From Deltaproteobacteria bacterium (GTDB taxonomy: Bacteria > Myxococcota_A > SURF-8): a stretch of DNA of 33,265 nt. Made by a program: the position numbers and the translations under genes. Every line of letters starts with the position of its first letter. Position 1 is the stretch's first letter. The notes under the pieces are model-generated. The model was not told where the DNA came from. It did no database searches and saw only the letters and a list, made by a program, of their open reading frames with translations. The stretch lies in the NCBI GenBank assembly GCA_029570245.1, contig JAKQSH010000185.1:1-33265 (forward strand), read 5' to 3'. Shown here piece by piece: positions 2,706 to 33,265 of the stretch.

Positions 2706-3227
2706 TTGCTGACTAAAAGAATGGCTTTTCCGCTTGTCCTGGTGCTTTGTTGTGCGCTTGTACAGGCCGCCTGTTCGGGTAAACAGTACAGTAATGGTGT
2801 ATTCGAGGACAAAAAAAACGCCTACAGGGTGGAAGACCCCGGAAAGGGCTGGCAACGCATCGAATCAGAAGACACCGATCTGGCATTTTTCAACGACGGG
2901 CTTAATGCCGTAATAATGGTAAACTCCACCTGCGATGATTATAAGGACGCTCCGGCGTCGGCTTTGACCGGCCATCTGTATATCGGAATCGAAGAACGCA
3001 AGGTGCTTGAGCAGCAGAAAATCAAGCTCGACGGACGCGAAGCCATATATACGCTTGTGGAAGGCAAGCTGGATGGAGTGCCGGTTAAGGTTGCCACTTA
3101 CGTGCTGGTGAAAAATTATTGCATATACGATCTGGCGTATTCGGCGCCTCCGGCTGCCTTCGAACGCGGTCTGCCGTATCTCAAAAAGGTAGCCGAAAAA
3201 TTCAAAGTACTGCGCAGAAAGGACTAG
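2706..3227 (+). CDS. Probable lipoprotein, hypothetical (PsbP/DcrB-like alpha-beta sandwich is only a guess), first gene of the mla-like operon
   Basis: Signal peptide MAFPLVLVLCCALVQAAC-SGK with a Cys after the hydrophobic core. Start is TTG 2706 or ATG 2721. It ends 4 nt before mlaE. Confidence 0.7.
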   Translation: MLTKRMAFPLVLVLCCALVQAACSGKQYSNGVFEDKKNAYRVEDPGKGWQRIESEDTDLAFFNDGLNAVIMVNSTCDDYKDAPASALTGHLYIGIEERKVLEQQKIKLDGREAIYTLVEGKLDGVPVKVATYVLVKNYCIYDLAYSAPPAAFERGLPYLKKVAEKFKVLRRKD

Positions 3228-3231
3228 TTCT

Positions 3232-4017
3232 TTGGCCAGAGCAAAAACTAATCCTTTAAACACCACTTTTTCGTTCGAAACCACGCTTATATGGATGGGG
3301 TCGATTTCTCTGCTTGCGGGCCAGACCATAAAGCGCATGTTTTCCGGCGGAGTGGAATTCGGTGAAATAGTCCATCAGATAAAAGTTCTGGGTATCAAGT
3401 CGCTTACAATCGTCAGTCTCACTGCGGTTTTCTCCGGGGCGGTCATGGGATTGCAGTTCGGCATGGCCATGGGGCGTTTCGGCGCGCGTGAAATGGTGGG
3501 GCAGGTGGTGTCTATGGCCATTCTGCGCGAACTGGGTCCGGTTCTGACGGCACTGCTGGTGGGCGGACGCATCGGGTCGGGTATGGCGGCGGAACTTGGT
3601 TCCATGCGCGTCACCGAACAGATAGACGCCATCCGCATTCTGGGCGCCGATCCCATTACCAAGCTTATCGTGCCGCGTGTGCTGGCGACGGTAATAATTT
3701 CGCCGCTGCTGACGATCTGGGCCGATCTTATCGGCGTTCTGGGCGGTGCGGTGGTGGCAAATACCGAATTCGGCGTCGGATATCAGTATTATTATCAGTC
3801 GGTTTTCGACATGATCGAAATCGCCGACTTCGTGTCGGGCGTAAGCAAGTCGGTTTTCTTCGGTTTTCTGGTGTCGCTGATAGCATGCCATGAAGGCTTC
3901 AACACGCGCGGCGGAACCGAAGGCGTAGGGCATTCCACCACCCGCACGGTGGTGTTGCTGTCCATAATAACGCTTATAGCCGACTTCATGCTGACTAAAA
4001 TTTTCCTGATGTTGTAG
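3232..4017 (+). CDS. mlaE: MlaE-family ABC transporter permease
   Basis: Characteristic MlaE/YrbE segments are present: AILRELGPVLTALLVGGRIGSGMAAELGSMRVTEQIDAIRILGADPI and GGTEGVGHSTTRTVV. About 260 aa. TTG start. Confidence 0.9.
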   Translation: MARAKTNPLNTTFSFETTLIWMGSISLLAGQTIKRMFSGGVEFGEIVHQIKVLGIKSLTIVSLTAVFSGAVMGLQFGMAMGRFGAREMVGQVVSMAILRELGPVLTALLVGGRIGSGMAAELGSMRVTEQIDAIRILGADPITKLIVPRVLATVIISPLLTIWADLIGVLGGAVVANTEFGVGYQYYYQSVFDMIEIADFVSGVSKSVFFGFLVSLIACHEGFNTRGGTEGVGHSTTRTVVLLSIITLIADFMLTKIFLML

Positions 4018-4023
4018 GGTGAA

Positions 4024-4812
4024 ATGCTGGAACTCGAAACCGAAAAATTCAAGGCTGGCGATATAATCATAACCTATCAGGATGTCTGGAAAGGCTTTGA
4101 AGACCTGTCGGTTTACGAAGGACTGAACCTCGAAATCCGCAAGGGCGAGACGGTTTCCATAATGGGCGGGTCGGGCACCGGAAAGACCGTGGCGCTTAAA
4201 ATGCTGGTCGGGTTGCTTACACCGGATCGAGGCGACATAACGGTTTTCGGAAAAAGCATCATAGGCATAAGCGAAAAAGACTGGGTGGCTGTGCGTCAGC
4301 GTGTTTCTCTGCTTTTCCAGAGCAACGCACTTTTCGATTCGCTTGATGTGCGCGAAAACCTGGCCTATCCGTTGCGCATAAAAGACCCGCACATCGCCGA
4401 ATCCGAAATCGACCGGCTGGTTGAAGAAAAACTGGGGCTGGTGGGCCTGCCGGGCATCCAGCACAAAAAACCGTCCGATCTGTCCGGCGGCATGCAGAAG
4501 CGGGTCGGTCTGGCGCGTGCCATCGTAACGGAACCGGACGTTATATTGTGGGACGAACCGACCACTGGTCTTGATCCGATCAACACACGCAGAATCGGCA
4601 GCCTCATCAAACGCATGAATGAGGTTTTAGGTTGCACCAGCATTGTTGTAACGCACGACATCGGCACGGCCTTCGAAGTGTCCGATCGCATCGCGTTTCT
4701 TTTCAATAAAAAACTGATTCTGACAGACACGACTGAAAATATTAAGAAAACCGACGTTCCCGAAGTAAGAAACTTCCTCGACGGGCGCTTCCAGGGTCTG
4801 TACGGGGAATGA
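4024..4812 (+). CDS. mlaF: MlaF-like ABC transporter ATP-binding protein
   Basis: Walker A GGSGTGKT, ABC signature LSGGMQKRVGLARA, Walker B ILWDEPTTGLD, H-loop VTHD. Positioned between the permease and the MCE gene. Confidence 0.9.
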   Translation: MLELETEKFKAGDIIITYQDVWKGFEDLSVYEGLNLEIRKGETVSIMGGSGTGKTVALKMLVGLLTPDRGDITVFGKSIIGISEKDWVAVRQRVSLLFQSNALFDSLDVRENLAYPLRIKDPHIAESEIDRLVEEKLGLVGLPGIQHKKPSDLSGGMQKRVGLARAIVTEPDVILWDEPTTGLDPINTRRIGSLIKRMNEVLGCTSIVVTHDIGTAFEVSDRIAFLFNKKLILTDTTENIKKTDVPEVRNFLDGRFQGLYGE

Positions 4813-4827
4813 AAACGGGTTTATATC

Positions 4828-5949
4828 ATGCGCGATAAAAAGACATTCATTCAGGTAGGAATTTTCGTAACCATACTGAGCCTGCTCTTTTTCATCATTG
4901 TATTTGTAATCGGTCAGGAGCGCAGCATGTTCGAATCGACCACTACGCTGTACACCTGGTTTAAAAATGTCGGCGGACTGAAAGCCGGCGCCCAGGTGCG
5001 TCTGTCTGGTGTGGCGGTCGGCTCGGTAACCGAAATAAGTTTTGCAGATGCGCTCGACGAACCGCGCCTGAAAATCGAAATGCAGGTCAAAACTTCGGTC
5101 ATGCCGCGCATCCGCCAGGATTCCAAGGCCACCATCAGTTCCAAGGGGCTTCTTGGCGATAAAGTCATAGAAATTTCCGTGGGTTCCATGGGCAAAGAGC
5201 AACTTGAAGAATATCAGTTCATCGAAAGCACCGAACCGCCCGATATCGCAACAATCATGGAAACCGGAGCCGAAATGCTTGGGCATATCAAAGACGTAGC
5301 CAAGGACCTGTCCGGTATGACCAGCGGTATCGGAGAAGAAACCATCGACGATATAAAAAGCACCATTGCACACTTCGAAGACGTAATGTCAGAGGTACGT
5401 AACGGTGACGGCATTGTTCACGGTCTTATTTACGACACCAAGGCCAACTCCGACTTCAGAGGTTCTCTGTCCAATATTCATGTCGCAACTGTAAAACTCA
5501 ATAAATCCATCGACCATGTCGAAAAAATACTGGAAGAAGTGCGTACCGGTGATGGCCTTATTCACAGTCTGGTTTACCAGAAAGAAGGCGGTCAGATTGT
5601 GAAAAACCTCGAAGAAGCCTCTGCCGTCGTGACCGAAATTGTCAATGCCATCAAAAACGACAAGGGCATGCTGCACACCCTTATTTACGATGAGGACAAG
5701 GGTAATTTTATCCGCAACCTGAATCAGGCTTCCGACGACATCCGCCATCTTACCGAATATATCCGTTCTGGACAGGGTACAGTCGGGGCGCTTATAAACG
5801 ATCCGACGGTTTACGAAGACCTGAAAGTTATTCTGGGCAACATAAAACGCAATAAAGCCCTTAAAGCCCTTGTCCGAATGTCAATAGAGCGGGAGGAAGA
5901 GGAGGGCGACAGTCGCCGCATCAAGTCGGAAGATGAAGAGAAACACTGA
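4828..5949 (+). CDS. mlaD: MlaD/MCE-domain protein with a long C-terminal repeat extension
   Basis: N-terminal TM helix, then an MCE domain (VGGLKAGAQVRLSGVAVGSVTEI...SSKGLLGDKVIEIS). About 230 further residues carry four repeats: GDGIVHGLIYD, GDGLIHSLVYQ, DKGMLHTLIYDE and GQGTVGALINDP. Confidence 0.85.
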   Translation: MRDKKTFIQVGIFVTILSLLFFIIVFVIGQERSMFESTTTLYTWFKNVGGLKAGAQVRLSGVAVGSVTEISFADALDEPRLKIEMQVKTSVMPRIRQDSKATISSKGLLGDKVIEISVGSMGKEQLEEYQFIESTEPPDIATIMETGAEMLGHIKDVAKDLSGMTSGIGEETIDDIKSTIAHFEDVMSEVRNGDGIVHGLIYDTKANSDFRGSLSNIHVATVKLNKSIDHVEKILEEVRTGDGLIHSLVYQKEGGQIVKNLEEASAVVTEIVNAIKNDKGMLHTLIYDEDKGNFIRNLNQASDDIRHLTEYIRSGQGTVGALINDPTVYEDLKVILGNIKRNKALKALVRMSIEREEEEGDSRRIKSEDEEKH

Positions 5950-5991
5950 AATGATCTGAAGTCGCAGGATTTGTTCCGGGGGGAAGTAAGA

Positions 5992-6933
5992 ATGAATTAT
6001 TTGAAACCATACATTGAGGCGTTTTTCAGGCTTCCGCGTTTGTGGTTTCTGCTTCTGGTGCAGGTTCTGCTTGATGCTGCGCTGGGGATTATGACTTTTC
6101 TACCATTCTTTCTGGCAATTTCGCTCTTTCTGCGCGCCTTTCTGCTTTCGCCTCCGGCAGGGGGAACTTCGCTTGAGGATATAGTCACTCCATTAAGAAT
6201 ACTGCTCGGAAACACCTGCGTGGCGTTCGCCATTTCAGGTTTCATGGCGGCATACCTTGTTACGGCATTTATGATGAAGGTTCTCATTCGTTCTGTGCTT
6301 ATGGCCGGAGTGGCGGACGTGGCGCGCGGCCAGCCGTTCGCCGGTCCTGTATCGCTGCTTTCGGGCGCAATCCGCCTCTGGCCGCGATTTGTTCCGCTGT
6401 ATCTGGCCGGATTTGTCGGAAACATTCTTTTCATAATCACAGCCGGAAGTTTCCTGCTGCTCATGTTTTATTTCGTCGATCCATATCTGCATGACAACAC
6501 TCCCGGTCTGCGTTATGTGTTTGATATAGCTTATCTTCTGCTGACAGTCGGGCCTCTGCTCGGAATGTATGTGCTGGGTCTGGCAGTGTGGTATCTGGCG
6601 CATCTGACTATTGCCGTTGACAATCTGTGCTGCATTGAAGCTGTAAAAACCGCATGGCGCTTATTATGGCAATACAGTGCGCAACTTATGATTTTTCTGC
6701 TGGCGCTGCTTTATCCGGCTGCCTTGCTGTGGGCGGTTTCGCTGGGCGGAAGCTCCATGCTGATGAGCATACGCATACAAAGCGGTTTCGCCGGAGTGTT
6801 TTCGCTCGCTTCGAACGCATGGTCGCTGACATTCATACTTGTCGGCTACGCACTGAATCTTTTTGTGATTCTCGGCATGGCGGTTTTTTATCGCGAAACG
6901 GCAAAAAGCCGGACTGAAGCCGGCTCCATATGA
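5992..6933 (+). CDS. Polytopic integral membrane protein, hypothetical (last gene of the mla-like cluster)
   Basis: At least 6 hydrophobic helices. The G-rich SD-like GGGGGAAG precedes ATG 5992 (the track's TTG 5971 is less likely). No catalytic motif recognised. Confidence 0.65.
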   Translation: MNYLKPYIEAFFRLPRLWFLLLVQVLLDAALGIMTFLPFFLAISLFLRAFLLSPPAGGTSLEDIVTPLRILLGNTCVAFAISGFMAAYLVTAFMMKVLIRSVLMAGVADVARGQPFAGPVSLLSGAIRLWPRFVPLYLAGFVGNILFIITAGSFLLLMFYFVDPYLHDNTPGLRYVFDIAYLLLTVGPLLGMYVLGLAVWYLAHLTIAVDNLCCIEAVKTAWRLLWQYSAQLMIFLLALLYPAALLWAVSLGGSSMLMSIRIQSGFAGVFSLASNAWSLTFILVGYALNLFVILGMAVFYRETAKSRTEAGSI

Positions 6934-6983
6934 AAAACACACACGAAAACTTCAAATATCACCAGATATTAACCTTATAAAGC

Positions 6984-7012
6984 TTGACCTCTCCGCTTTT
7001 TCCTGTTGAAAT
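6984..7012 (+). promoter_or_regulatory. Candidate promoter for the giant ORF
   Basis: TTGACC (6984..6989), 17-nt spacer, TGAAAT (7007..7012), in the 130-nt gap upstream of ATG 7064. Pattern match only. Confidence 0.25.
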
Positions 7013-7063
7013 GAAACATTATGAGGCCATAGTACAAACAGGTCATTTACGGAGAATGGCGAG

Positions 7064-10000
7064 ATGAATCCAAAGTCAGTAAAACGGTTAATGTTGCTGG
7101 GTATTGTCACGTGCATGCTGGCGTTAGCTTCGCCGGCGGCGCACGCCGGACTTTTCGACGGTATGCTTGACGGTGTTGAAGGCATTACGCCTCTGCCGTA
7201 CATGGCATATCCGGTTGACGACAAGGTAAATCAGCTCGCCCAGGTTCGCATCACCGATCCGGGCTTCACCTACCTCGAAAACCATGTGGTTGACATAATA
7301 AAGCCGTTTCTTGGCGAAAGCTTCGACGTGCTGGAAGGCGGCAGCCTGGTGATCTGCAATTATTGCGGCGGTTCCGGCAATTACTGTTCGATATCGGTTG
7401 ACATCCAGAACGTTGACATAGTTTCGGAAGCGCCGAACACCTTATGGGTCAATGTCCGTCTGGCTCCAATTGATTTCAGGCTCGAAACCACCTGCGCCTG
7501 CAACATAGACGTTACCACCAACGGCCAGCCGGTGGATGTTCAGGTGAAAATACAGCCGCAGATAGACGGTTTCACTCGTCAGCTTTACCTTGATGTTTCG
7601 CTTGGGTATCTCGAACTCGGCTCGCTGGTGGATGTCAAGCTTAACGGTGTCTGCGACTTCCTGAATCTGCTGGAAGGACTCATCAACGCCATCGTCAGCG
7701 GCATGAACAGCACCATCAACAATCTCATTTACACCACGGTTAAAGACGCTGTTGACAGCTTCCAGTGCATGGCCTGCGAAACCAACGCCGACTGTCCGAC
7801 TTCTCCGCCTGCTCCCTACGGCACGGTCTGCGACACCGAAAAGAAAATTTGCCGTTACGATTACGACCCGGAAGAGTCCTGCGTCTATGCTCCGCTCGGC
7901 ATCGAAGCCGAAGTCGATCTGGGATATCTGCTCAAAGATTTGATGCCCGGTCTCAAATCCAAAATCTGGGCTTCGCTGGTTGCGGGCGGCTACGGCACCT
8001 GTCCCTACGGCGGCCTCGATCTCGGCATGTTCGGCGGCACAATGCCCGCCGGAGAGCCCGAACTCTGCACCAGCGAACTCAACTATGTGCCACAGGTTCC
8101 GCCGCGCGTTTTCTGCCGCAACCAGGGCGGAGTCGTTAAGGAACCCTGCAACGAAAACCTCAACGTGAATCCGCATGCTGTGTTCCACGCCGGTCTGGGT
8201 TTGGCCGAAGAACTGCTCGATCAGGCGGGAGCCACCATCCAGGATTCAGGTCTGCTCTGTCTGCAACTCGACAACAGCATGGAAGGCGTCGGCGATTACC
8301 TCTCGCTGTCCACCTTCTCGCTGCTGATTCCTTCGCTCAAAATCTACAGTCACGAACAGGAAGTTCCGGTTCTCATCAAACTTGCTCCCACAAAACAGAC
8401 CGAACCCACTGTTGATTTCAGAATCGCCAGCTCCGACGCTGCTTTCCCGAATCCCGAAGACCCGGATGTCGATTCGGCTCTGGTCATCTTCCTGGACGAC
8501 ATAGCCATCAACATTTACGGCTTTGTCGATGAACGTTATGTCCGCATGTTCGAGCTGCTGACCGATATCGAAATCACCGCCGGTCTTCAGACTGAAGGCG
8601 GCAACAGCATTACTCCCATTTTCGGACTCAACAACGTAAAGCTTACAAACATGAGCGTGCCGTTCTCGGTACAGGACCTGCCGCCCGAAGACCTGGCTGC
8701 AACGCTTGAAGGGCTTATCGGCGGTCTGCTCGGACAGATTCCGCTCGATCCGTTCGAGCCGATCAAAATTCCCGGCTTCAGTCTGCTCGAAAACACACTG
8801 TCCTGCACGGGCGATCCGGCCTGCCAGAACGTTGACCCCGACCTGCTGTGCAGCGGCGGAATCTGTGTTGATGCCGACGGCAAGCCCTACGATCCGCAGG
8901 AACTCTTTGTCGATCTGCAATCCATCAGCCCCGAAATTCCCAAGGACAGCCAGGGCTACGCGCACCGTATGCTGGTGGCCTACGCCAATCTGCGCTGGGA
9001 AACCGATGGCGTCAAAAAAGAAACCGAAGAATATGTGTTCGAATCGGAGACTTATGCTGACATAGCCGAAATATTCATGCCCACGGTCGATCAGATCGTC
9101 AAAGAACGCATGCGCCCGGTCGTAACGCTCGAAATCGGCGGCGAAGACGCCGAAGGAGGCGACGAAAATCTGGTATATCAGGTGAAAATCGGCGCTTCGG
9201 CCTGGAAGAACGTCCGTGGCGGAACGCTGGTTCTGGATGATCCGGCATTCCTGCTTCAGGGCAAACATGTTATCCAGGTTCGCAGCCGTGACGTGCGTTT
9301 CAGCGACTGGGACAGCTCACCCGAAACACTGAGCGTACTGGTAGATTACACCGCGCCGCATGCCGATCCTCAGCAGGACGCATCGCTGTTGTATTTCAGA
9401 GGCAGCGACAACGTCACGAAGGCTTCCGATCTCAAATATCAGATCAGTGTTGACGGCGGCGAATGGTTCGCAGTCGGCAGCGAAAAATTCAATCTGGCTG
9501 ATCTGCCTTCGTGGCCGAAGTCTGTCAGCGTAAAAGTCATTGACGAAAAGGGTCTTGAAACAGTGGTCGAAAAAGCAATCGGCAATCCCGAACCCGCAAG
9601 CGGAATCGAACGCAAAGTCGCCGCAGGCAAGTCTGTTCCCGAAGGAATCGACAGCGGCTGTTCCTCATCCTCTTCCGCCGGATGGTTGCTGGCGCTGCTG
9701 CTTCTGCCTCTGGCTGTACTCAGAAGTCTGCGTAAAGCCGGTGCTTTCACCGCTTTGTTTGCGGCTGTAACTCTGGCCGGTCTTACTCTGGCGTCCTGCT
9801 CCGGCAGCGGCTCCAGTGGTTGTGTTAACAACACCGATTGCGGAGCCGGGCAGCGTTGTGTAAACGGAACCTGTGAAGATGTCAACGACAACGGCGACGC
9901 CGATGGAATCGTAATTCCCGAAGGCGACCAGGACGACGTCGGTGAAGAAGACATCGAAATAGACGGCGACAAGCCAGATGGCGATGCAGATGAAGTAGAT

Positions 10001-12097
10001 GAAGATGTTGTCATCCCATGCGAGACACAGGCGGATTGTCCCAAATGTTATCGCTGTTCAACGCTGAAAAAACAGTGTGAACTCCAGGAATGCGACCCGG
10101 AATGTCCCGAAATTCCCGACTGCGTGACACAGAATAACGATACATGTTTTTCATGTAACACCAGTAGTGACTTCCATTTCTGCGAAAGGCCGCGTTGCGA
10201 TGCCGACAACTGGGAAGAAGTCTGTGCCTGCCGGGTCTGCGAAGGCGATACTCCGGTGCTTTCCTGCGAAGAATCCACCGGTCTCTGCATTTGCAACACA
10301 TGGTGCAAAGGAGCTTGTCCCAACGGTTCCTTCTGCTGCAAACCTCCGGTAAGCGAAAATCCTATCGGCGAATGTACAACCTGTCCGGGCTGGTGCGAAG
10401 GCACGGTCTGCGATCCGGGTTACGCTCCTGGCGGCTGCGATCCGACCGAAATGGATTGCGGCTTCGAATGGAAACCCTGTGACAACATAAATTACGAAAC
10501 TTGCCAGGCCGAAGGCACCGGTTCCCCGAACGATCCCAATTGCGCCTGTGCCGAAAAACCGCCGCTGCCCATCGGATACCATGGCCGCTACAACGACATG
10601 GCCGTAGCTGCCATCAGTGACGACAAAAATCCCGTTGACAGCCTGATCTGGGTTTCGACTTACAACGAAACCTACGGCGACCTTATGATAGGCACGACCT
10701 ATTATTCGCACATTCCGGCGGAAGGCATTACGCCCGAAGAAAGCTATCACTGGTTCTTCGCCGACGGTATTCCCAGCCTGGACGACGAAGGCGTCACCAT
10801 CGAAGGCGGTCCTTCGGGCCCGCGCGGCGGAATTAAAAAGCCCGGCCCAGATGTTGGCATGTTCACTTCAATAGCGCTTTCAGCCGAAGGCTGGCCGCGT
10901 GTGGCATATCAGGATGTCGATAATGGCGACCTGCTCTTCATGTATACCGACGGAGTTCTGGCCGAAGGAGTAACCCTTGAAGAAGGTGCAGAAATCGACC
11001 CGAACAACTACGTCTGGAACAAAATTGTGGTCGATGCCCCGGGCAACACCGGCTACTACACCGACCTCATAATCGACTCCGAAGGTCGTCCGATCATCGC
11101 TTACATGAGCGCCGAAATGGAAGGCCAGAAAATTTCACAGCTCAAACTGGCCATGGCAGTAAACGCCAGTCCCGCCGGGCCGGAAGATTTCCGCTTTGCG
11201 GTAGTTGACAGCGCTGCCGTGGCCGGAATGCCCTGCGGCGGAACCTGTTCGGGCGGCAACGCATGCATAGCTGCTCCCGGTGGTGATTCCTGCGTGGGAC
11301 CCACCAGCGACTGCGGTGGAAGCTGCGAAGGCAAGCAGGTCTGTTACAACGGCTCCTGCTACAACAAACGCACCGCCCCGGCTTTCGTCAGCCTACCCGA
11401 CGGCATCGGTTTGAACCCCGAAATGGCCTTCTACGCCGACGGTTCGCTGTGGGTAGTTTACTACGACAACAACGTCTATTCTGGCGGTGAAGTCGTAAAA
11501 CACGGCTATCTCAAGCGCGCCATTCTCGGCGGCGGAGCGCCCAATCCCGACACCATCGCCACTGCGGCATTCACACGTACAATACTGGCGGGTCCGGAAG
11601 GATCGGCGGTAGCAGGCGACTGCGGTCTTTACAGCTCATTGGCGGTCGTAAAGACCACCGGATGGTGGGCGGTGAGTTTCTACAATGTCACGATGAATCA
11701 GCTGATGCTGCTGTTCGATCTGGGCGAAGGTATAAAAACCTATGTGGCCGACGACGGCTGGCGCGATGTGAACGGCACAAACTATCAGCGCCGCACCATG
11801 ACCGGAGCCGACAGCAGAATCGTTTTCGATCATACCGGCGCTTTCAATGTGGTCTATCAGCAGCAGAGCGATTCGGTGCTTGAGTTCTACAACGTCAAGT
11901 GTTACAGCGATGGCGAGTGCGACAGTTTGGAAGAGTCGCGCCAGGACGTTCTGACCATGGTTGACGACGAATACGGCAAGTCCTACGGCTATTATCCCAA
12001 TATTTATTTCATAGCCAACGGCGCACCGATAATTTCGTCATACGGTGTCGAACTTGCCCCCAAAAAGAATCTGGGCTTCTTCCTGGTGAAACCCTGA
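7064..12097 (+). CDS. Giant secreted cysteine-rich surface protein (1677 aa) built from two modules. Module 1 is a BPI/TULIP-like region plus an Ig-like domain. Module 2 is a Cys-rich region plus a beta-propeller-like repeat region.
   Basis: GGAG lies 9 nt before the ATG. Signal peptide [28 protein letters not shown]. The frame is open over 5 kb. Recurrent C-x3-DC-x(n)-C-x2-G-x-C knots are present. The C-terminal third has 6 or more repeats of the type G.Y..L..D..G.P.IAY (for example [18 protein letters not shown] and [18 protein letters not shown]). A strong terminator follows the gene. Confidence 0.85.
   Translation: [1677 protein letters not shown]
9656..9736 (+). other. Internal MYXO-CTERM-like tripartite sorting tag (GC-SSSSS, hydrophobic helix, basic residues) in mid-ORF
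   Basis: Codon-by-codon reading gives G865-C866[25 protein letters not shown]. The same architecture forms the true C-terminus of the peptidase at 21155..21247. Confidence 0.6.
9722..9799 (+). other. Internal lipoprotein-type signal peptide with canonical lipobox, in mid-ORF
   Basis: [26 protein letters not shown] (Cys912, TGC 9797..9799) has an n-region, h-region and L-A-S-C lipobox. No stop codon, ATG or SD lies between it and the preceding tag. The only in-frame alternatives are CTG 9728 and TTG 9755, and neither has an SD. Confidence 0.55.
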
Positions 12098-12118: not shown

Positions 12119-12160
12119 AACACCCGGGTCGTTACGGGACGATCCGGGTGTTCTTTTTTT
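12119..12160 (+). terminator. Rho-independent terminator of the giant ORF
   Basis: A 12-13 bp GC-rich stem (12121..12133 CACCCGGGTCGTT pairs with 12138..12150 GACGATCCGGGTG, with two G-U pairs) closes a 4-nt loop and is followed by TTCTTTTTTT. It sits 23 nt after the stop at 12097. Confidence 0.85.
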
Positions 12161-13709: not shown

Positions 13710-14545
13710 TATATTTCGATTTTTCCTTCAAACACCAGTTCCGCCGGGCCTTTAAGCCACAGACCGTCGGCGCGCCGGGTAACCGTCAGCAGGCCGCCCG
13801 GCAGTTGCAGCTGAACCGGCTGTCCGGCATTTACTCGCCCGCTGCGCATGGCGGCGGCTGCTGAAGCGCAGGCGCCAGAACCGCAGGCCAGAGTGATTCC
13901 CGCCCCTCGTTCCCATACCGTCACTTCAAGCTGCTGCGGTCCGGTCACTCTTACAAATTCAACATTGGTGCGATGCGGAAAAAAAGGGTGATGCTCGAAG
14001 GTCGGCCCATAGGTTTTTTCCACTTCCAACGGGTCTGGAGATTCGAAGCAGACCAGATGCGGATTGCCCATATCGACATACGTTCCGCGAACTTCAAGAC
14101 CGTTGCGCTCAAGTTCGGCATCAAGCAGTTCGGGAGGCAGGCCGGGGGCCAGTCTGGCCGTGTCGAACGATGGCTGGCCTATCAGGCATTCGACTTCTTC
14201 GACTGCGCCGTCATGCTTGCGGCTTATGATGCATGGGTTAAGCACCAGCATGGTTTCAATGACGAATTTTTCTGCTTCCGGCGCGAAGCGCTCGGCGATG
14301 TGACGCGCAGTACAGCGCAGGCCGTTGCCGCACATTTCGGCTTCCGAACCGTCGCTGTTGAGGATTCGCATTTTCCAGTCGGCTTTCTCCGAGTGGCTCA
14401 AAAGCAGTATGCCGTCGGCGCCGATGCCGAAATGCCGGTTGCAGAGACGCGCGGTAAGTTCCGGCGTCAGAGCTGGAGCAGTGTCTGGCTCGAACAGAAT
14501 GAAATCGTTGCCTGCACCCTGATATTTGAAGAATTGATATTTCAT
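13706..14545 (-). CDS. dapF: Diaminopimelate epimerase
   Basis: FFKYQGAGNDFILF and both catalytic Cys motifs (EMCGNGLRC and LACGSGACA) are present. About 280 aa. Confidence 0.93.
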   Translation of the reverse strand: MKYQFFKYQGAGNDFILFEPDTAPALTPELTARLCNRHFGIGADGILLLSHSEKADWKMRILNSDGSEAEMCGNGLRCTARHIAERFAPEAEKFVIETMLVLNPCIISRKHDGAVEEVECLIGQPSFDTARLAPGLPPELLDAELERNGLEVRGTYVDMGNPHLVCFESPDPLEVEKTYGPTFEHHPFFPHRTNVEFVRVTGPQQLEVTVWERGAGITLACGSGACASAAAAMRSGRVNAGQPVQLQLPGGLLTVTRRADGLWLKGPAELVFEGKIEIY

Positions 14546-15267
14546 TTTATCCCACTTCGGCAGTTGCTGTTGTTCAGCATTGTAACGAACACGCGGTTCG
14601 AGAACTCGCGTCCCACCGCCAGTCGGCTTTCACCCGACTGCAACACCATCTGGCCCATAAGCGAGCGCGACAGCACCGTCACACGATCGCCCAGCGCCAG
14701 CCCCATAGCCGCCAGCCGCTCGCGCATACCGGCGCCGCCCGCCATCTGTTCGATAATGGCTGTTTCGCCGGGCAGAAGCAGACGTAGCGGAATGAGCTGA
14801 CGCTGTTCGTGCGCTGCGCATTCCGGGCAGAGTCCGTAGATTTTGTGCTTGTGGTAAAACTGTCTGAAGTTGTGCGAGTTTGCGATTTCCTGCTGGATGC
14901 GTTCAAGCGCTTCGTTGCGAAAAGTTACATCCAGTCCGCAACGCAGACAGATCAGGTGATCGGAATGATCGTCAACCTCGTCGTGCGAATAGCGCAACTG
15001 ACGATCCTCGCCTTCTTCTGATTTAGCCAGACCGTATTCGACAATCCGGCGCAGAAGCGCGGAAACTTGAGCATGAGTGCTTGAAACGCCGCGCTGGTTC
15101 AGCTGCTGCACCAGTTCTTCGACCGTGACCGGGCCTTCACTGGAAAAAAACACATCCACAAGCACTTCAATTGTGGCGCGGTCTGCTGCTGCTCCGCGTT
15201 CAAGATGGTTGAGCAGTCGCCTGCCGAAGCACCGGCTGATGCTCTCGTGTACGGTTCCGTGTTTCAT
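14542..15267 (-). CDS. Fur-family metalloregulator fused to a C-terminal FeoA (SH3-like) domain
   Basis: Winged-helix region, HSDHLICLRCG and HKHKIYGLCPEC (Fur CxxC pairs). The C-terminal segment is LLPGETAIIEQMAGGAGMRERLAAMGLALGDRVTVLSRS...LAVGREFSNRVFV (FeoA pattern). ATGA overlaps occur at both gene junctions. Confidence 0.85.
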   Translation of the reverse strand: MKHGTVHESISRCFGRRLLNHLERGAAADRATIEVLVDVFFSSEGPVTVEELVQQLNQRGVSSTHAQVSALLRRIVEYGLAKSEEGEDRQLRYSHDEVDDHSDHLICLRCGLDVTFRNEALERIQQEIANSHNFRQFYHKHKIYGLCPECAAHEQRQLIPLRLLLPGETAIIEQMAGGAGMRERLAAMGLALGDRVTVLSRSLMGQMVLQSGESRLAVGREFSNRVFVTMLNNSNCRSGIK

Positions 15268-21151: not shown

Positions 21152-22570
21152 TCAGCGGACTTCGTCTTCCCTGCGGCGATATGCCAGCAGTGTCCCGGCC
21201 AGCAGCATAAGCAGCGCCGAAGGCATGCTCGAAGAACTGCAGCCGTCCGAACCGGAACCGGAGCCTTCGTCTTCAACAGCTTCATCGCCGTCTTCTAAGG
21301 GTTCTTCGGCAGCTTCTGCTTCAAGCTCTTCGTCGCCGTCGCCTTCAGGCTCTTCCGACTGAATTTCGATTTTAAGGTTTACCGTTATCAGTGGGCCGTT
21401 GGAAGGCATAATGACAAAAGGCTGTTCGATCAGGCCTGGGGCGTGTCCTGCAATATCGACAGTGAAGTTTACATTTTCCGACTCTCCGACATCAAGATGT
21501 CCTTCGGTGGGAGTCACCGTAACCCAGCCTTTCCAGGTTATGTCTTCTCTGAGTGTCCAGCTGATATCCAGATCGCCGCAGTTTTCTAAATTCAGATCGA
21601 ACTGTACGGTATCGACAACGCTTCCCGGTTCGAGCACTTTTTCCAGCGTTTCAGGCTGGCACAAACCGATGTTCAACGGTTCATCCGGGACGGTTTCGGG
21701 GTCGATTCTGAGCCAGTCGGCGGTAATGACTGCGAAGCAGCTGGTACCGCGTTTTATTTCGAAATAGCCGTCCATGCCCCAGTCTGCACCCCATGAGTTA
21801 CGGGCGATCCACGAATCATGCTCGTCATCCCAGCCTACCAGTGTGACGATATGATTGGGGGCCAGATGTGTCAGTGAGCAGGCTTCGGTGAAGCCGTAGT
21901 ATACGCCGCTGCGATAATAATACAGATCGTTTTCAGCGCGCATGGTTACTGTCAGAGGTCCTTTCATAAGCTCTTCTTTAAGTTCTTCTTCGGTGGGAGT
22001 AAGCATGATCGACCAGTCGCTGAGCTTGACAATGCGTGTCAGATAATCGTCGCAGGCGTCTTCACAGAGTCCTTCTTCTGCCAGATACGGATAACAAATT
22101 TCATCGGGAATACCGTTTTTTTCGATGTAGCCAAGCACTTCCTCGGCGAATCCGCCGCCGTCGCAGCTTCCTCCGCCGCAGGCCACCATGAATTGTTCGG
22201 AAAGGTCATAGTCGAAATCCGGGTCTTCCTTGTAAATGTTTATGAGGCCCTCCATTGCACCCAGAGCACCGAAAGTCCAGCAGCTGCCGCAGCCACCCTG
22301 GTTTCTGACTGGGGTCATCCAGTCCACGCCGTCCATGTCGTGCCAGTTCCAGTGCGCCGGAAAATCCGTTTTCGTGACAGGCTTGCGGTCTTTGGGCAGA
22401 GTGCCGTGTTTCATGGCGTAGCTCAGATCGAGCGGAGTGTTTATCAGGCGGTCTCTGACTTCCTGTGGCAGACGCGACATGCCAGTTTCGCCGCGAACCC
22501 AGTCAGCATAAGCCGGCAGAGCCCATAGAAAAGCCAGAAGAACAGCAGTCAGGATGGCCGATGATTTCAT
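21152..22570 (-). CDS. Papain-family (C1) cysteine peptidase with a beta-sandwich domain, acidic linker and MYXO-CTERM-like tail
   Basis: Signal peptide MKSSAILTAVLLAFLWALPAYA from ATG 22570 (GAGG SD). Catalytic motifs are NQGGCGSCWTFGA, NHIVTLVGWDD and NSWGADWGMDGYF. The upstream 76 codons in the track cross the promoter region and are rejected. Confidence 0.9.
   Translation of the reverse strand: MKSSAILTAVLLAFLWALPAYADWVRGETGMSRLPQEVRDRLINTPLDLSYAMKHGTLPKDRKPVTKTDFPAHWNWHDMDGVDWMTPVRNQGGCGSCWTFGALGAMEGLINIYKEDPDFDYDLSEQFMVACGGGSCDGGGFAEEVLGYIEKNGIPDEICYPYLAEEGLCEDACDDYLTRIVKLSDWSIMLTPTEEELKEELMKGPLTVTMRAENDLYYYRSGVYYGFTEACSLTHLAPNHIVTLVGWDDEHDSWIARNSWGADWGMDGYFEIKRGTSCFAVITADWLRIDPETVPDEPLNIGLCQPETLEKVLEPGSVVDTVQFDLNLENCGDLDISWTLREDITWKGWVTVTPTEGHLDVGESENVNFTVDIAGHAPGLIEQPFVIMPSNGPLITVNLKIEIQSEEPEGDGDEELEAEAAEEPLEDGDEAVEDEGSGSGSDGCSSSSMPSALLMLLAGTLLAYRRREDEVR
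21155..21247 (-). other. C-terminal MYXO-CTERM-like sorting tag
   Basis: The last 31 aa read DGC-SSSS-MPSALLMLLAGTLLAY-RRREDEVR: a Cys-containing motif, a hydrophobic helix and an Arg cluster. A 40-aa D/E/G-rich linker precedes it. Confidence 0.65.
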
Positions 22571-22852
22571 TTCATACCTCGTAGAAACGTTTAATTTCAA
22601 ATGCTTATTATACATGAATTCTCGAAATGTCAGATAGAAAATGAAGGCAGACTCGAAAAAATACCGGTTAGGCCATGCTCTGTTTACGGTCTGCCTGCCG
22701 GAAACAGTCGTAAAATATACGCAGAAGCCGGATATCCGCTGCGGAAAATACAATTCGCCGGAAAATCTTCCATATCTTGCATTTGCCTCCCGAATCAATT
22801 AGTCATTTAATATGTGCAATGTTTATCAGAACTGCAAACAAACGGGGATGCG

Positions 22853-31640: not shown

Positions 31641-32205
31641 CCGGTTCCGTCCGCCGGTGAGGCGGCAGCTTCTAATTTTTCCGGCATCTTCAGAAAATCT
31701 GCAATCCTGCCGGTTTTGAGTTCATATCTCAGAGCCTTATTTTTTGTCGCCATCCTGAAAAATGGCCGTAAAACGAACTCGTACTTTCTTTTTCAATAAT
31801 CTTAGTGTATTATACTTAAAGTATTTTAATAATGCCTCTTAATCGAGTGCTGATAAAAATGCTTGAAAGAGTCGGATTTTAGCGTTATTGTTCATCAAGT
31901 ACATCACGGTACTGGTGCATTACCACCGTGTATTTTGGGCATTTTGAATTTTACATTTTCAGGGGCGTTTAAACGGATAAGGAAAGCAGTTGGGTGGAGT
32001 GTGCTTTTCGCACGCTTTGCCGGTCTGGATTTGAGCATCGCAGTCAACTTTTTTGTTGAAATGGGACGTTTTCCCGTTTTTTCTTTTCTGTGTGTGATAC
32101 CTGCTGTTGGCATGCGAGTTGACGGCGGTTTTTCCGCCGGCAAGATATGAATATTAAGGTTATGTCTGTAATTTATTATAAGTACAACATTTTCAGGAGG
32201 AACAA

Positions 32206-33265
32206 ATGAGACGTCTGCTCAGCGTTTTTCTGGCGTGTCTGTTGTTGGTTCTGGCCGTTCCGTTTGCTGCGGCGGAAGAAATGACGATTCAGATCGAGCC
32301 GAATTCGATTGAAGACCCCAATTGCGGATGTGCGCTGCCTCACTCGGGGGGTATAGGTATGAGCACTTCCACATCGACGATTCAGATCAATGACCCTCTT
32401 CCTGCCGGGTCAAAGTTGACTCAGGTACAGATCACTGTTTACGGCATATTGTGCGATCCCAATCTGGCAACGGTATTTCTGGCCGGAACCGAAATCGGGA
32501 GTTTCGTTCCGAATACAATAGACTGTTGGTGTGATTCCTGCATCTCAAGCGCACCGTTGTCCTCGCTTGAATATCTGACGGGCTTTCCGGGCTATAATTA
32601 CGGCGGACTGAACGATTTGTCCTTCAGCGCTTTCACCTACAACATGTACCCATCTTATTATGAGATCAAATTCATATACACCCAGGGAATTTTCGTCACC
32701 ACGTTCGATGACGAACTCAACAACGACGGCGACTGTTCGCTGCGCGAGGCCATCCAGTCCGCCAACAGCGACACGGCGATTGACGCCTGCAAAGCCGGGA
32801 GCGGCGACGACGAAATTATTCTTACGGCTGGCACCTACACTGTTTCCATCGCCGGAGTCGGCGAAGACCTCAATCAGACCGGTGACTTCGATGTTCTGAG
32901 CAATATCGCATTCGTCGGTGAAGGCATTTCCGCCACCATTATAAGCGGTGCAGCTCTCGATCGTGTTTTCCACGTTGCGGGCGCTCATACCGTCAGCATC
33001 AGCGAACTTTCCATCCGTGACGGATATGTCGAAAACGCCAACGGCTACGGTGGTGGAATTTATAACCAGGGCGATCTCACTCTGACCAATGCAGAGGTAA
33101 GCGGGTGCTATGCCCAGGGCGACAACAGCAGCCGCAGTGGTGGCGGCTTCGGCGGCGGCATATACAACGAAAACACTCTGACTCTTGAATATTCGTCTAT
33201 CACGAACAATACCGCACAGGGCGGCGACGGTTCCAACGGCGTATCGCGCGGCGGCGGAGGAGGAG
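32206..33265 (+). CDS. Secreted CSLREA-domain / right-handed beta-helix (PbH1-like) repeat protein. The 3' end is cut by the window edge.
   Basis: Absent from the ORF track. AGGAGG (32195..32200) lies 5 nt before ATG 32206. My translation is open to the window end. It reads MRRLLSVFLACLLLVLAVPFAAA signal, a roughly 150-aa Cys-containing N-domain, then DGDCSLREAIQSANSD (CSLREA at 32734..32751). Gly-rich repeats follow (GYGGGIYNQGDLTL.., GGGFGGGIYNENTLTL..). Confidence 0.85.
   Translation, partial: MRRLLSVFLACLLLVLAVPFAAAEEMTIQIEPNSIEDPNCGCALPHSGGIGMSTSTSTIQINDPLPAGSKLTQVQITVYGILCDPNLATVFLAGTEIGSFVPNTIDCWCDSCISSAPLSSLEYLTGFPGYNYGGLNDLSFSAFTYNMYPSYYEIKFIYTQGIFVTTFDDELNNDGDCSLREAIQSANSDTAIDACKAGSGDDEIILTAGTYTVSIAGVGEDLNQTGDFDVLSNIAFVGEGISATIISGAALDRVFHVAGAHTVSISELSIRDGYVENANGYGGGIYNQGDLTLTNAEVSGCYAQGDNSSRSGGGFGGGIYNENTLTLEYSSITNNTAQGGDGSNGVSRGGGGG

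Follow-up and report, generated by a model that had tools for sequence, protein, structure and literature searches.

The stretch of DNA analyzed here (the window) comprises 33,265 nucleotides of contig JAKQSH010000185.1, from a genome assembly (GCA_029570245.1) of a Deltaproteobacteria bacterium in the GTDB lineage Myxococcota_A, SURF-8. By its RecJ protein, which is 62% identical to the best match other than itself and ≤48% identical to every other, the organism can be assigned only to an uncultured, deep “deltaproteobacterial” lineage. Its central feature is one very long open reading frame (ORF) on the forward strand (positions 7064 to 12097; features described below lie on this strand unless stated otherwise), which encodes a protein of 1677 amino acids. 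Upstream of this giant ORF, on the same strand, are three genes of an Mla-type lipid transport system that are recognized by both Pfam and NCBIfam models: mlaE (3232 to 4017; Pfam MlaE, E = 3.5e-74), mlaF (4024 to 4812; Pfam ABC_tran, E = 1.8e-32), and mlaD (4828 to 5949; Pfam MlaD, E = 6.4e-19). An original prediction, made from the sequence, had placed these genes here and had proposed that the first half of the giant protein resembles the two-lobed BPI/LBP/CETP (TULIP) lipid-binding proteins and that it works as a component of the Mla ABC system. The analysis bears out the TULIP assignment, locating a BPI/LBP/CETP-type double TULIP domain (N lobe, central sheet, and C lobe) at amino acids 55 to 640 (7226 to 8983), in the first third of the protein.

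An AlphaFold2 model of amino acids 40 to 640 (model 1), built with 82 family sequences as the alignment, has a mean predicted local distance difference test score (pLDDT) of 80.6 and a predicted template modeling score (pTM) of 0.80. Two TULIP lobes are joined in it by a central β-sheet, and the order of elements assigned by DSSP is that of the BPI family. The N lobe consists of a strand, helix A (amino acids 65 to 83), a curved sheet (approximately amino acids 108 to 194), and a long helix B (amino acids 204 to 234; 7673 to 7765). A small Cys-rich insert (amino acids 235 to 273; 7766 to 7882) separates helix B from the strands of the central sheet. The core of the C lobe (amino acids 375 to 560; 8186 to 8743) is formed by a strand, helix A' (amino acids 382 to 394), a sheet (amino acids 435 to 531), and helix B' (amino acids 541 to 558), and the last strands of the model go back to the central sheet. 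Helices and sheets sit where the original prediction had expected them; it had drawn the domain at 7235 to 8790, which is the right region, but the end lies farther downstream, at approximately amino acid 640 (nucleotide 8983).

In a Foldseek comparison of model 1 with the PDB, BPI came out on top (1bp1, E = 9.2e-15, probability 1.00; 1ewf, E = 6.3e-14), with TM-scores normalized to the target of 0.54 to 0.58, followed by LBP (4m4d), CETP (2obd), botulinum P47, OrfX2, SPLUNC1/BPIFA1, and YceB. All of the top 25 matches are TULIP proteins, so that the structural check which the original prediction had recommended, AlphaFold followed by Foldseek, returned the TULIP fold with BPI first.

Profile comparisons place the sequence of the domain beside BPI in the same order. 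A family profile of 82 sequences with the window protein as master (A4) was aligned by hhalign to human BPI (in a sequence that agrees with 1bp1 except at one residue) with 95.2% probability and an E value of 2.9e-8 over 314 columns, and BPI residues 2 to 329 fell on window amino acids 56 to 453. A HMMER profile of the N-terminal regions of seven relatives, taken from a word-indexed homology search and searched against PDB sequences, found BPI (1bp1/1ewf) with a weak overall score (E = 0.5) in three collinear segments: BPI residues 5 to 22 with AQVRITDPGF..., residues 151 to 179 with the long helix B (an equivalence also given by hhalign), and residues 254 to 328 with HAGLGLAEELLDQ...LSLSTFSLLIPSL, in the C lobe core. 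These segments are the very pairs from which the original prediction had started, and the parallels go far beyond chance. Every peptide that it had quoted is present in the giant ORF where it had been placed, including AQVRITDPGF at amino acids 59 to 68 (7238 to 7267), HAGLGLAEELLDQ at 8186 to 8224, LSLSTFSLLIPSLKIY at 8300 to 8347, and EDLAATLEGLIGGLLGQI at 8687 to 8740. The last of its parallels, between LAATLEGLIGG... and the C-terminal helix of BPI, stands by the fold only, as the alignment made by hhalign goes no farther than BPI residue 329.

Pfam and NCBIfam models do not pick up the domain in the window protein. Searched as a whole ORF and as the N-domain alone, it has no Pfam match at an E value of ≤10 and no BPI match in NCBIfam, and hence matches neither of the models that had been suggested as a check, PF01273 (LBP_BPI_CETP, gathering score of 28.8 bits) and PF02886 (LBP_BPI_CETP_C, gathering score of 23 bits). 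Its relatives do better. PF01273 is found in them below threshold (17.4 bits and E = 0.0037 in P0003; two of eight N-domains, best E = 2.9e-4), and PF02886 matches the equivalent C-lobe region in 11 of 59 relatives, with a best E value of 3.7e-8. The PF02886 scores of the 20 relatives that were scanned singly were all below threshold; scaled from 17.9 bits at an E value of 0.0022, the best E value corresponds to approximately 34 bits, and at least one relative probably passes the gathering score.

The lack of a Pfam match in the window protein and its low identity to BPI (11 to 12% as aligned by Foldseek and 18% as aligned by hhalign) could be taken to mean that the likeness arose by convergence or chance and that the domain is an adhesin module of a generic, β-rich type. 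We find this barely credible in view of the uniform TULIP identity of the top Foldseek matches, the hhalign E value, and the LBP_BPI_CETP_C matches of the relatives. Amino acids 55 to 640 are confirmed as a true homologue of the eukaryotic BPI/LBP/CETP double TULIP domain.

The cysteines of the domain set it apart from BPI. The TULIP part has 21 of them, nine of which are invariant in eight-sequence alignments (A1 and A2), and this content fits an oxidizing, extracytoplasmic location. Five cysteines in the first insert (C235, C238, C244, C256, and C263) are invariant in A1 and A2; in the larger alignment A4, invariance holds for C244 and C263 and is nearly complete for C235, C238, and C256. 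The insert has no BPI counterpart in the hhalign alignment, in which Cys235 aligns with BPI Cys175, one half of the Cys135-Cys175 disulfide, and no partner is aligned to Cys135. A second Cys-rich insert (amino acids 580 to 603; 8801 to 8872), modeled with low to moderate pLDDT, corresponds to a gap in all seven relatives in A1.

The window domain thus shares with BPI, LBP, CETP, and PLTP (PF01273 plus PF02886; 1bp1, 1ewf, 4m4d, and 2obd) two helix-sheet-helix tubes, a central sheet, collinear elements, secretion, and a sequence similarity that is detectable at profile level. It differs in length (approximately 590 amino acids compared to approximately 456), in its two Cys-rich inserts and numerous cysteines, and in being a bacterial domain, below Pfam thresholds, within a multidomain envelope protein.

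The remainder of the giant protein was assessed from the sequence, from a second AlphaFold2 model (model 2; amino acids 640 to 1677, pLDDT of 78.9), and by comparison with two contigs, L005 (JGI Ga0172375_10000320) and L045 (Logan SRR11050433). The giant protein of L005 (P0030, 1674 amino acids) is 84% identical to that of the window over its full length, and the L045 member falls in the same 90% cluster. The ATG start codon and a GGAG 10 nucleotides 5' of it are identical in L005 and L045. At the N terminus, a signal peptide of the Sec/signal peptidase I (SPase I) type can be read from the sequence (amino acids 1 to 28, ...ASPAAHA/G; 7064 to 7147). The TULIP domain is followed by two tandem Ig/FnIII-like β-sandwiches (amino acids 662 to 745 and 752 to 839; 9047 to 9580), which have a pLDDT of >90 in model 2, match tissue factor, IL-10R, and the BIg domains of SiiE in Foldseek, and contain the conserved family motif EWQVRIDGGLWS...LQGxHxIEVRAR.

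Next comes a Cys-type sorting tag of the kind otherwise found at C termini (amino acids 865 to 891, GCSSSSSAG-WLLALLLLPLAVL-RSLRK; 9656 to 9736), with all three parts of such signals: a signature containing the invariant Cys, a transmembrane (TM) helix, and a basic cluster. It is internal, since 786 residues lie C terminal of it. The NCBIfam model Synerg-CTERM (TIGR04564) scores this tag at 16.1 bits (E = 0.008), below its cutoff of 22.5, and at the equivalent internal site of two relatives, MYXO-CTERM (TIGR03901) scores 24.5 bits (P0005) and 22.5 bits (P0121), above the cutoff of 20. Directly after the tag is a lipoprotein-type signal (amino acids 894 to 912, AFTALFAAVTLAGLTLAS/C; 9743 to 9799); counted from the basic cluster of the tag (amino acids 887 to 912), it has the parts of a predicted signal peptidase II (SPase II) signal, RSLRK, AGAFTALFAAVTLAGLT, and the lipobox L-A-S-C, in an internal position. 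Model 2 has short helices at amino acids 873 to 888, in the tag, and 896 to 906, in the lipoprotein signal, and these two are predicted to form a TM hairpin.

Beyond the hairpin, an Asp/Glu-rich and Cys-rich stalk (34 Cys; amino acids 915 to 1159; 9806 to 10540), modeled as small hairpins with mixed pLDDT, leads to a C-terminal all-β propeller (amino acids 1160 to 1677; 10541 to 12094). A weak match to Myxo_Cys_RPT was found in the relative P0116. The propeller is modeled with high pLDDT and resembles lectins and sialidases: its first Foldseek matches are the Photorhabdus lectins PLL2, PLL5, and PLL (E values of 8e-11 to 5e-9; best match 6rgg_B, E = 7.9e-11, TM-score normalized to the target of 0.67), and sialidases follow. 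Purifying selection extends over the whole ORF. In comparison with P0030 (dS of approximately 1.1), the ratio of nonsynonymous to synonymous substitution rates (dN/dS) comes to 0.067 in the TULIP part, 0.078 in the sandwiches, and 0.085 in the propeller, and the folded parts and the Cys-rich stalk all lie between 0.05 and 0.09.

A second protein of the window ends in a tag of the same kind. It is a papain-family cysteine peptidase encoded on the reverse strand (21152 to 22798; Pfam Peptidase_C1, E = 2.3e-47, and a weak match to BACON_2), and its C terminus, ...DGCSSSSMPSALLMLLAGTLLAYRRREDEVR, can be divided into DGCSSSS-MPSALLMLLAGTLLAY-RRREDEVR, with the GCSSSS signature of the internal tag. 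Because this tag stands at a true C terminus, it implies a putative myxosortase-like sorting system in the organism.

The giant protein belongs to a large family. When the window protein was the only query, GTDB genomes gave no match and metagenomes just the contig already known, and the word-indexed homology search found only seven relatives, with approximately 25% identity. An exhaustive profile search returned 1677 representatives at 50% identity with an E value of ≤1e-3, 613 of them with an E value of ≤1e-30. Every named source is a member of the Myxococcota, every member is annotated “hypothetical protein,” and literature searches found no paper on this BPI-like Myxococcota family. The original prediction had called such proteins rare and largely uncharacterized in bacteria; the family is not rare, and DUF4403 and TipA were known, but largely uncharacterized still applies.

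Family members fall into two size classes. The short form (730 to 940 amino acids) consists of the double TULIP, two β-sandwiches, and a Cys-type, MYXO-CTERM-like C-terminal sorting tag. In the long form, to which the window protein belongs, the tag is in the middle of the protein, and a lipoprotein signal, a Cys-rich stalk, and a lectin-like β-propeller come after it. Among 157 sampled family sequences, 44 carry the tag at the C terminus and 75 at an internal site, and 63 of these 75 long forms have a lipobox-like motif within 70 residues past the tag. An N-terminal lipobox-like Cys, scored by a loose regular expression, occurs in 136 of the 157 and is followed by a Gly/Cys-rich linker (e.g., LAACSGGGGGGC). 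In place of this Cys, an SPase I-type signal is present in the window protein and in P0030, and the N-terminal lipid anchor seems, from these sequences, to have been lost in the lineage of the window.

The direct succession of a complete sorting tag and a complete lipoprotein signal in the middle of one protein, together with short-form relatives that end exactly at the tag, might suggest that the giant ORF is an artifact of assembly or annotation, in which a lost stop codon or a frameshift has joined two genes. The in-frame fusion is present, however, in 75 of the 157 sampled relatives, from many independent assemblies; P0030 and a further full-length orthologue, P0277, are fused in the same way at 84% identity to the window protein; and dN/dS values are low before as well as after the junction. 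An artifactual fusion was therefore rejected, and we give it next to no credence.

Counterparts of the individual parts are known. TraA and other MYXO-CTERM proteins of Myxococcus xanthus share a Cys-containing tripartite tag, Cys-rich repeats, and a lectin-like domain with the window protein (PMC11980579); TraA, which takes part in the transfer of outer-membrane lipids and lipoproteins between cells (PMC11980579), differs in having no TULIP domain and a tag at the true C terminus, whereas the window tag is internal and has a lipoprotein signal after it. The Photorhabdus PLL lectins (5c9l, 6rg2, 6rgg, and 8q83) share the β-propeller fold of the C-terminal 520 amino acids, at approximately 10% identity, and the window propeller has in addition Cys-rich hairpin inserts. 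DUF4403, a predicted bacterial full-length pseudodimeric TULIP found mostly in lipoproteins of diderm bacteria (Levine 2019, PMC6791001), is a double TULIP of bacteria as well, and its interface is a β-meander like that of BPI. It differs in being a single-domain protein of approximately 460 amino acids; its Pfam model has no match in the window protein or in the 67 relatives scanned, and the window family matches the eukaryotic BPI models instead.

TipA of Bdellovibrio (Bd2538) binds membranes, carries several lipid molecules, and is opened by a β-sandwich adaptor (10.1101/2025.09.09.675085). This partner, TipB, is a separate, C2-like protein, whereas the sandwiches of the window protein are fused behind the TULIP domain and match FnIII/BIg-type folds. 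TipA, which was compared by description only and is not among the PDB Foldseek matches of model 1, differs also in being a soluble homodimer of approximately 570 amino acids without sorting tag, stalk, or propeller; its description mentions relatives in the AlphaFold database that are fused to β-rich and other domains (10.1101/2025.09.09.675085). What is new in an otherwise known double-TULIP type is the fixed architecture of the family, above all an internal sorting tag that borders on a lipoprotein signal.

We think it rather likely that the giant ORF encodes a secreted, disulfide-rich envelope protein, a true BPI/LBP/CETP homologue, that serves as a surface-anchored device for binding or extracting lipids and does not have Mla as its defining partner. 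The following sequence of events can be proposed. (i) Sec-dependent export would place both large parts of the protein outside the cytoplasm, joined by the TM hairpin. (ii) A myxosortase-type protease would cut at the Cys of the tag, and signal peptidase II at the lipobox, and the two cuts would release two lipid-anchored modules. Myxosortases are CPBP proteases that cut at a Cys-containing motif and bring about display at the cell surface (PMC11980579; 10.1101/2023.06.07.544157); MYXO-CTERM tags are cleaved by MrtX, and the proteins go to the cell surface (PMC11980579). (iii) The propeller may recognize a glycan on the envelope of a target. (iv) The TULIP tube may bind or extract an amphipathic lipid (lipopolysaccharide [LPS], lipid A, or a phospholipid) from the outer membrane of the target or of the cell itself. 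The handling of lipid in the last step is modeled on BPI, LBP, and TipA, and in BPI-like double TULIPs, the lipids sit in a hydrophobic lumen.

The predicted hairpin topology also allows an uncleaved protein that bridges the envelope, with the hairpin in the inner membrane, the N terminus at the outer membrane, and the TULIP domain and β-sandwiches spanning the periplasm as a conduit in the manner of SMP/E-Syt proteins. Double TULIPs are approximately 140 Å long, and TipA dimers reach a length that spans the periplasm (10.1101/2025.09.09.675085); the N-terminal lipobox-like Cys of most family members would hold the N terminus by a lipid. The window protein itself has an SPase I-type signal without such a lipobox, a lectin-like propeller makes more sense outside the cell, and short forms end in a tag of a type whose cleavage has been demonstrated experimentally in TraA and results in surface display (PMC11980579). 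A periplasmic bridge is, in our estimation, rather unlikely.

Several points weigh against a surface-anchored, processed lipid-binding protein. Lipid binding, localization, and processing are proposals for all members of the family. A hydrophobic cavity that holds lipid in the window TULIP domain is assumed from the modeled fold, and the likeness of the modeled propeller to lectins and sialidases is at fold level only. As noted above, the window protein itself has no Pfam match; none of the NCBIfam CTERM models scores its tag above cutoff, and MYXO-CTERM gives no match to it. Literature searches found no report of an internal MYXO-CTERM tag and no precedent for the cleavage of a sorting tag away from the C terminus; in the Haft preprint (10.1101/2023.06.07.544157), the word “internal” is absent.

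A more far-reaching version of the proposal can be put forward, which we regard as very unlikely as a whole. The long forms would be envelope polyproteins in which tag and lipoprotein signal are both cut, giving two lipid-anchored modules in a 1:1 ratio; the propeller would recognize a glycolipid that the BPI-like tube would extract from the outer membranes of prey or kin; in the lineage of the window, the lipid would be handed to the adjacent needle-type MCE importer; and the family would be the closest prokaryotic sequence relative of eukaryotic BPI/LBP/CETP.

BPI, LBP, and CETP are medically important carriers of lipids and LPS that for a long time were believed to occur in eukaryotes only. 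Known bacterial TULIPs include YceB, P47/OrfX, and DUF2140, and to our knowledge, the bacterial double TULIPs described so far are few, namely, DUF4403 as a prediction and TipA by a crystal structure. The present analysis defines a much larger, unnamed, Myxococcota-centered family that is related at the sequence level to the eukaryotic Pfam models. Its fixed architecture, in which a lipid tube is combined with a tag for surface sorting and a lectin-like propeller, offers concrete candidates for the handling of external or outer-membrane lipids by predatory or social bacteria. The family can further serve to test a layout that has not been reported, in which a “C-terminal” sorting signal lies in mid-protein with a lipoprotein signal straight after it. 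The analysis also dispenses with a link to Mla that was attractive but lacks support.

That link was suggested by gene order. A lipoprotein-like ORF, mlaE, mlaF, mlaD, a 320-amino-acid multipass membrane ORF (TM320; 5971 to 6933), the giant gene, and a HAD hydrolase gene follow one another in the window, and the order is kept in L005 and, according to precomputed Pfam gene calls, in L045. The giant gene is not directly downstream of the mla genes, as the original prediction had it, since TM320 and a noncoding spacer of 130 nucleotides (6934 to 7063) intervene after mlaD. The double TULIP protein might nevertheless be an accessory of the adjacent MlaFED (MCE-type) system, receiving or delivering lipids at the outer membrane or across the periplasm. 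The genes from the lipoprotein-like ORF to the giant gene lie on one strand in all three contigs; the stretch between TM320 and the giant gene lacks a terminator-like hairpin, and a strong one stands directly 3' of the latter (12119 to 12152; 15-bp stem with eight GC pairs and a T run). This hairpin begins 22 nucleotides past the stop codon, ahead of the HAD hydrolase gene, and is the predicted end of the transcription unit.

The MlaD protein also bears on such a role. E. coli MlaD is approximately half the length of the 373-amino-acid long form encoded here, which carries a long helical C-terminal extension and whose orthologues in L005 and L045 have a weak match to Pfam Helical_needle. None of mlaC, mlaB, and mlaA was seen in the mla operon of the window, and the long-form MlaD points to an MCE ring equipped with a needle or tube and not to an Mla system that relies on a shuttle. 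The 173-amino-acid lipoprotein-like ORF (2706 to 3227; lipoprotein signal LVQAAC), whose stop codon is 4 nucleotides 5' of mlaE, has no match in a Pfam scan and is 82% identical to its L005 counterpart; it may be an accessory lipoprotein of this adjoining Mla-like system. In some BPI/CETP proteins of protists, moreover, there is a fusion to PqiA, which is the permease of a different MCE system (PMC5507252).

Conservation beyond the lineage of the window is lacking. Loci of relatives were scanned by tblastn with the MlaE, MlaD, TM320, and HAD proteins of the window, the 38 loci being L005, 31 loci from genomes of Kofleriaceae, Haliangiales, and other Myxococcota, and six contig loci of more distant relatives. 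The genes were found beside the giant gene in L005 and in none of the 37 other loci. The mla genes are likewise absent from the gene calls around three further relatives, P0121, P0156, and P0099, the upstream flank being cut in P0156 and P0099. The window, L005, and L045 represent one narrow lineage (≥84% identity), and because these three contigs are collinear over >20 kb, the adjacency mirrors close relatedness: it is lineage specific and reflects relatedness rather than selection. The conserved synteny by which the original prediction was to be judged is confined to L005 and L045, and its proposal of a component working with the Mla ABC system failed in this respect.

TM320 and the spacer speak in the same sense. 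TM320 has no Pfam or NCBIfam match and only three homologues among 5.8 billion proteins and is an apparent lineage-specific orphan. The spacer is 83.6% identical to that of L005, compared to 79% for the giant gene, 69% for the TM320 coding sequence, and 38 to 67% for other spacers, and it contains a weak sigma-70-like site (7006 to 7033). Because its identity exceeds that of the flanking coding DNA, it is probably the giant gene's own promoter or leader; an Rfam scan of it gave no credible match (best sul1, 16.6 bits against a gathering score of 36.2). Taken together, an accessory role in Mla transport appears unlikely. A functional link is not supported for the family and is conceivable in the one lineage of the window because of its long-form MlaD and the protist BPI-PqiA fusions (PMC5507252).

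Clustering of the ORFs in the collected loci revealed no universally conserved partner gene, the large clusters consisting of the gene itself and of antisense shadow ORFs of GC-rich genomes. Upstream of the gene for the long-form relative P0121 (1573 amino acids) lies a gene for a 567-amino-acid protein with a Pfam ABC_tran_2 domain, which is not an Mla component (L039, 146 to 1849; L040, 128 to 1831).

Other genes of the window include a PAP2-family gene (1127 to 2179) upstream of the giant ORF. A single 241-amino-acid ORF on the reverse strand (14542 to 15267) encodes a FUR domain joined to a FeoA domain at its C terminus, a fusion that is also called in L005 and L045. At the edges, a forward-strand ORF that leaves the end of the window (32182 to 33265) is Gly rich and repetitive (GGGFGGGIYNENTLTLEYSSITNNTAQGGDGSNG), without a Pfam match, and a reverse-strand ORF that leaves its start (1 to 1011) has weak matches to Ig-like HYDIN/VesB-type domains; both probably encode further surface proteins.

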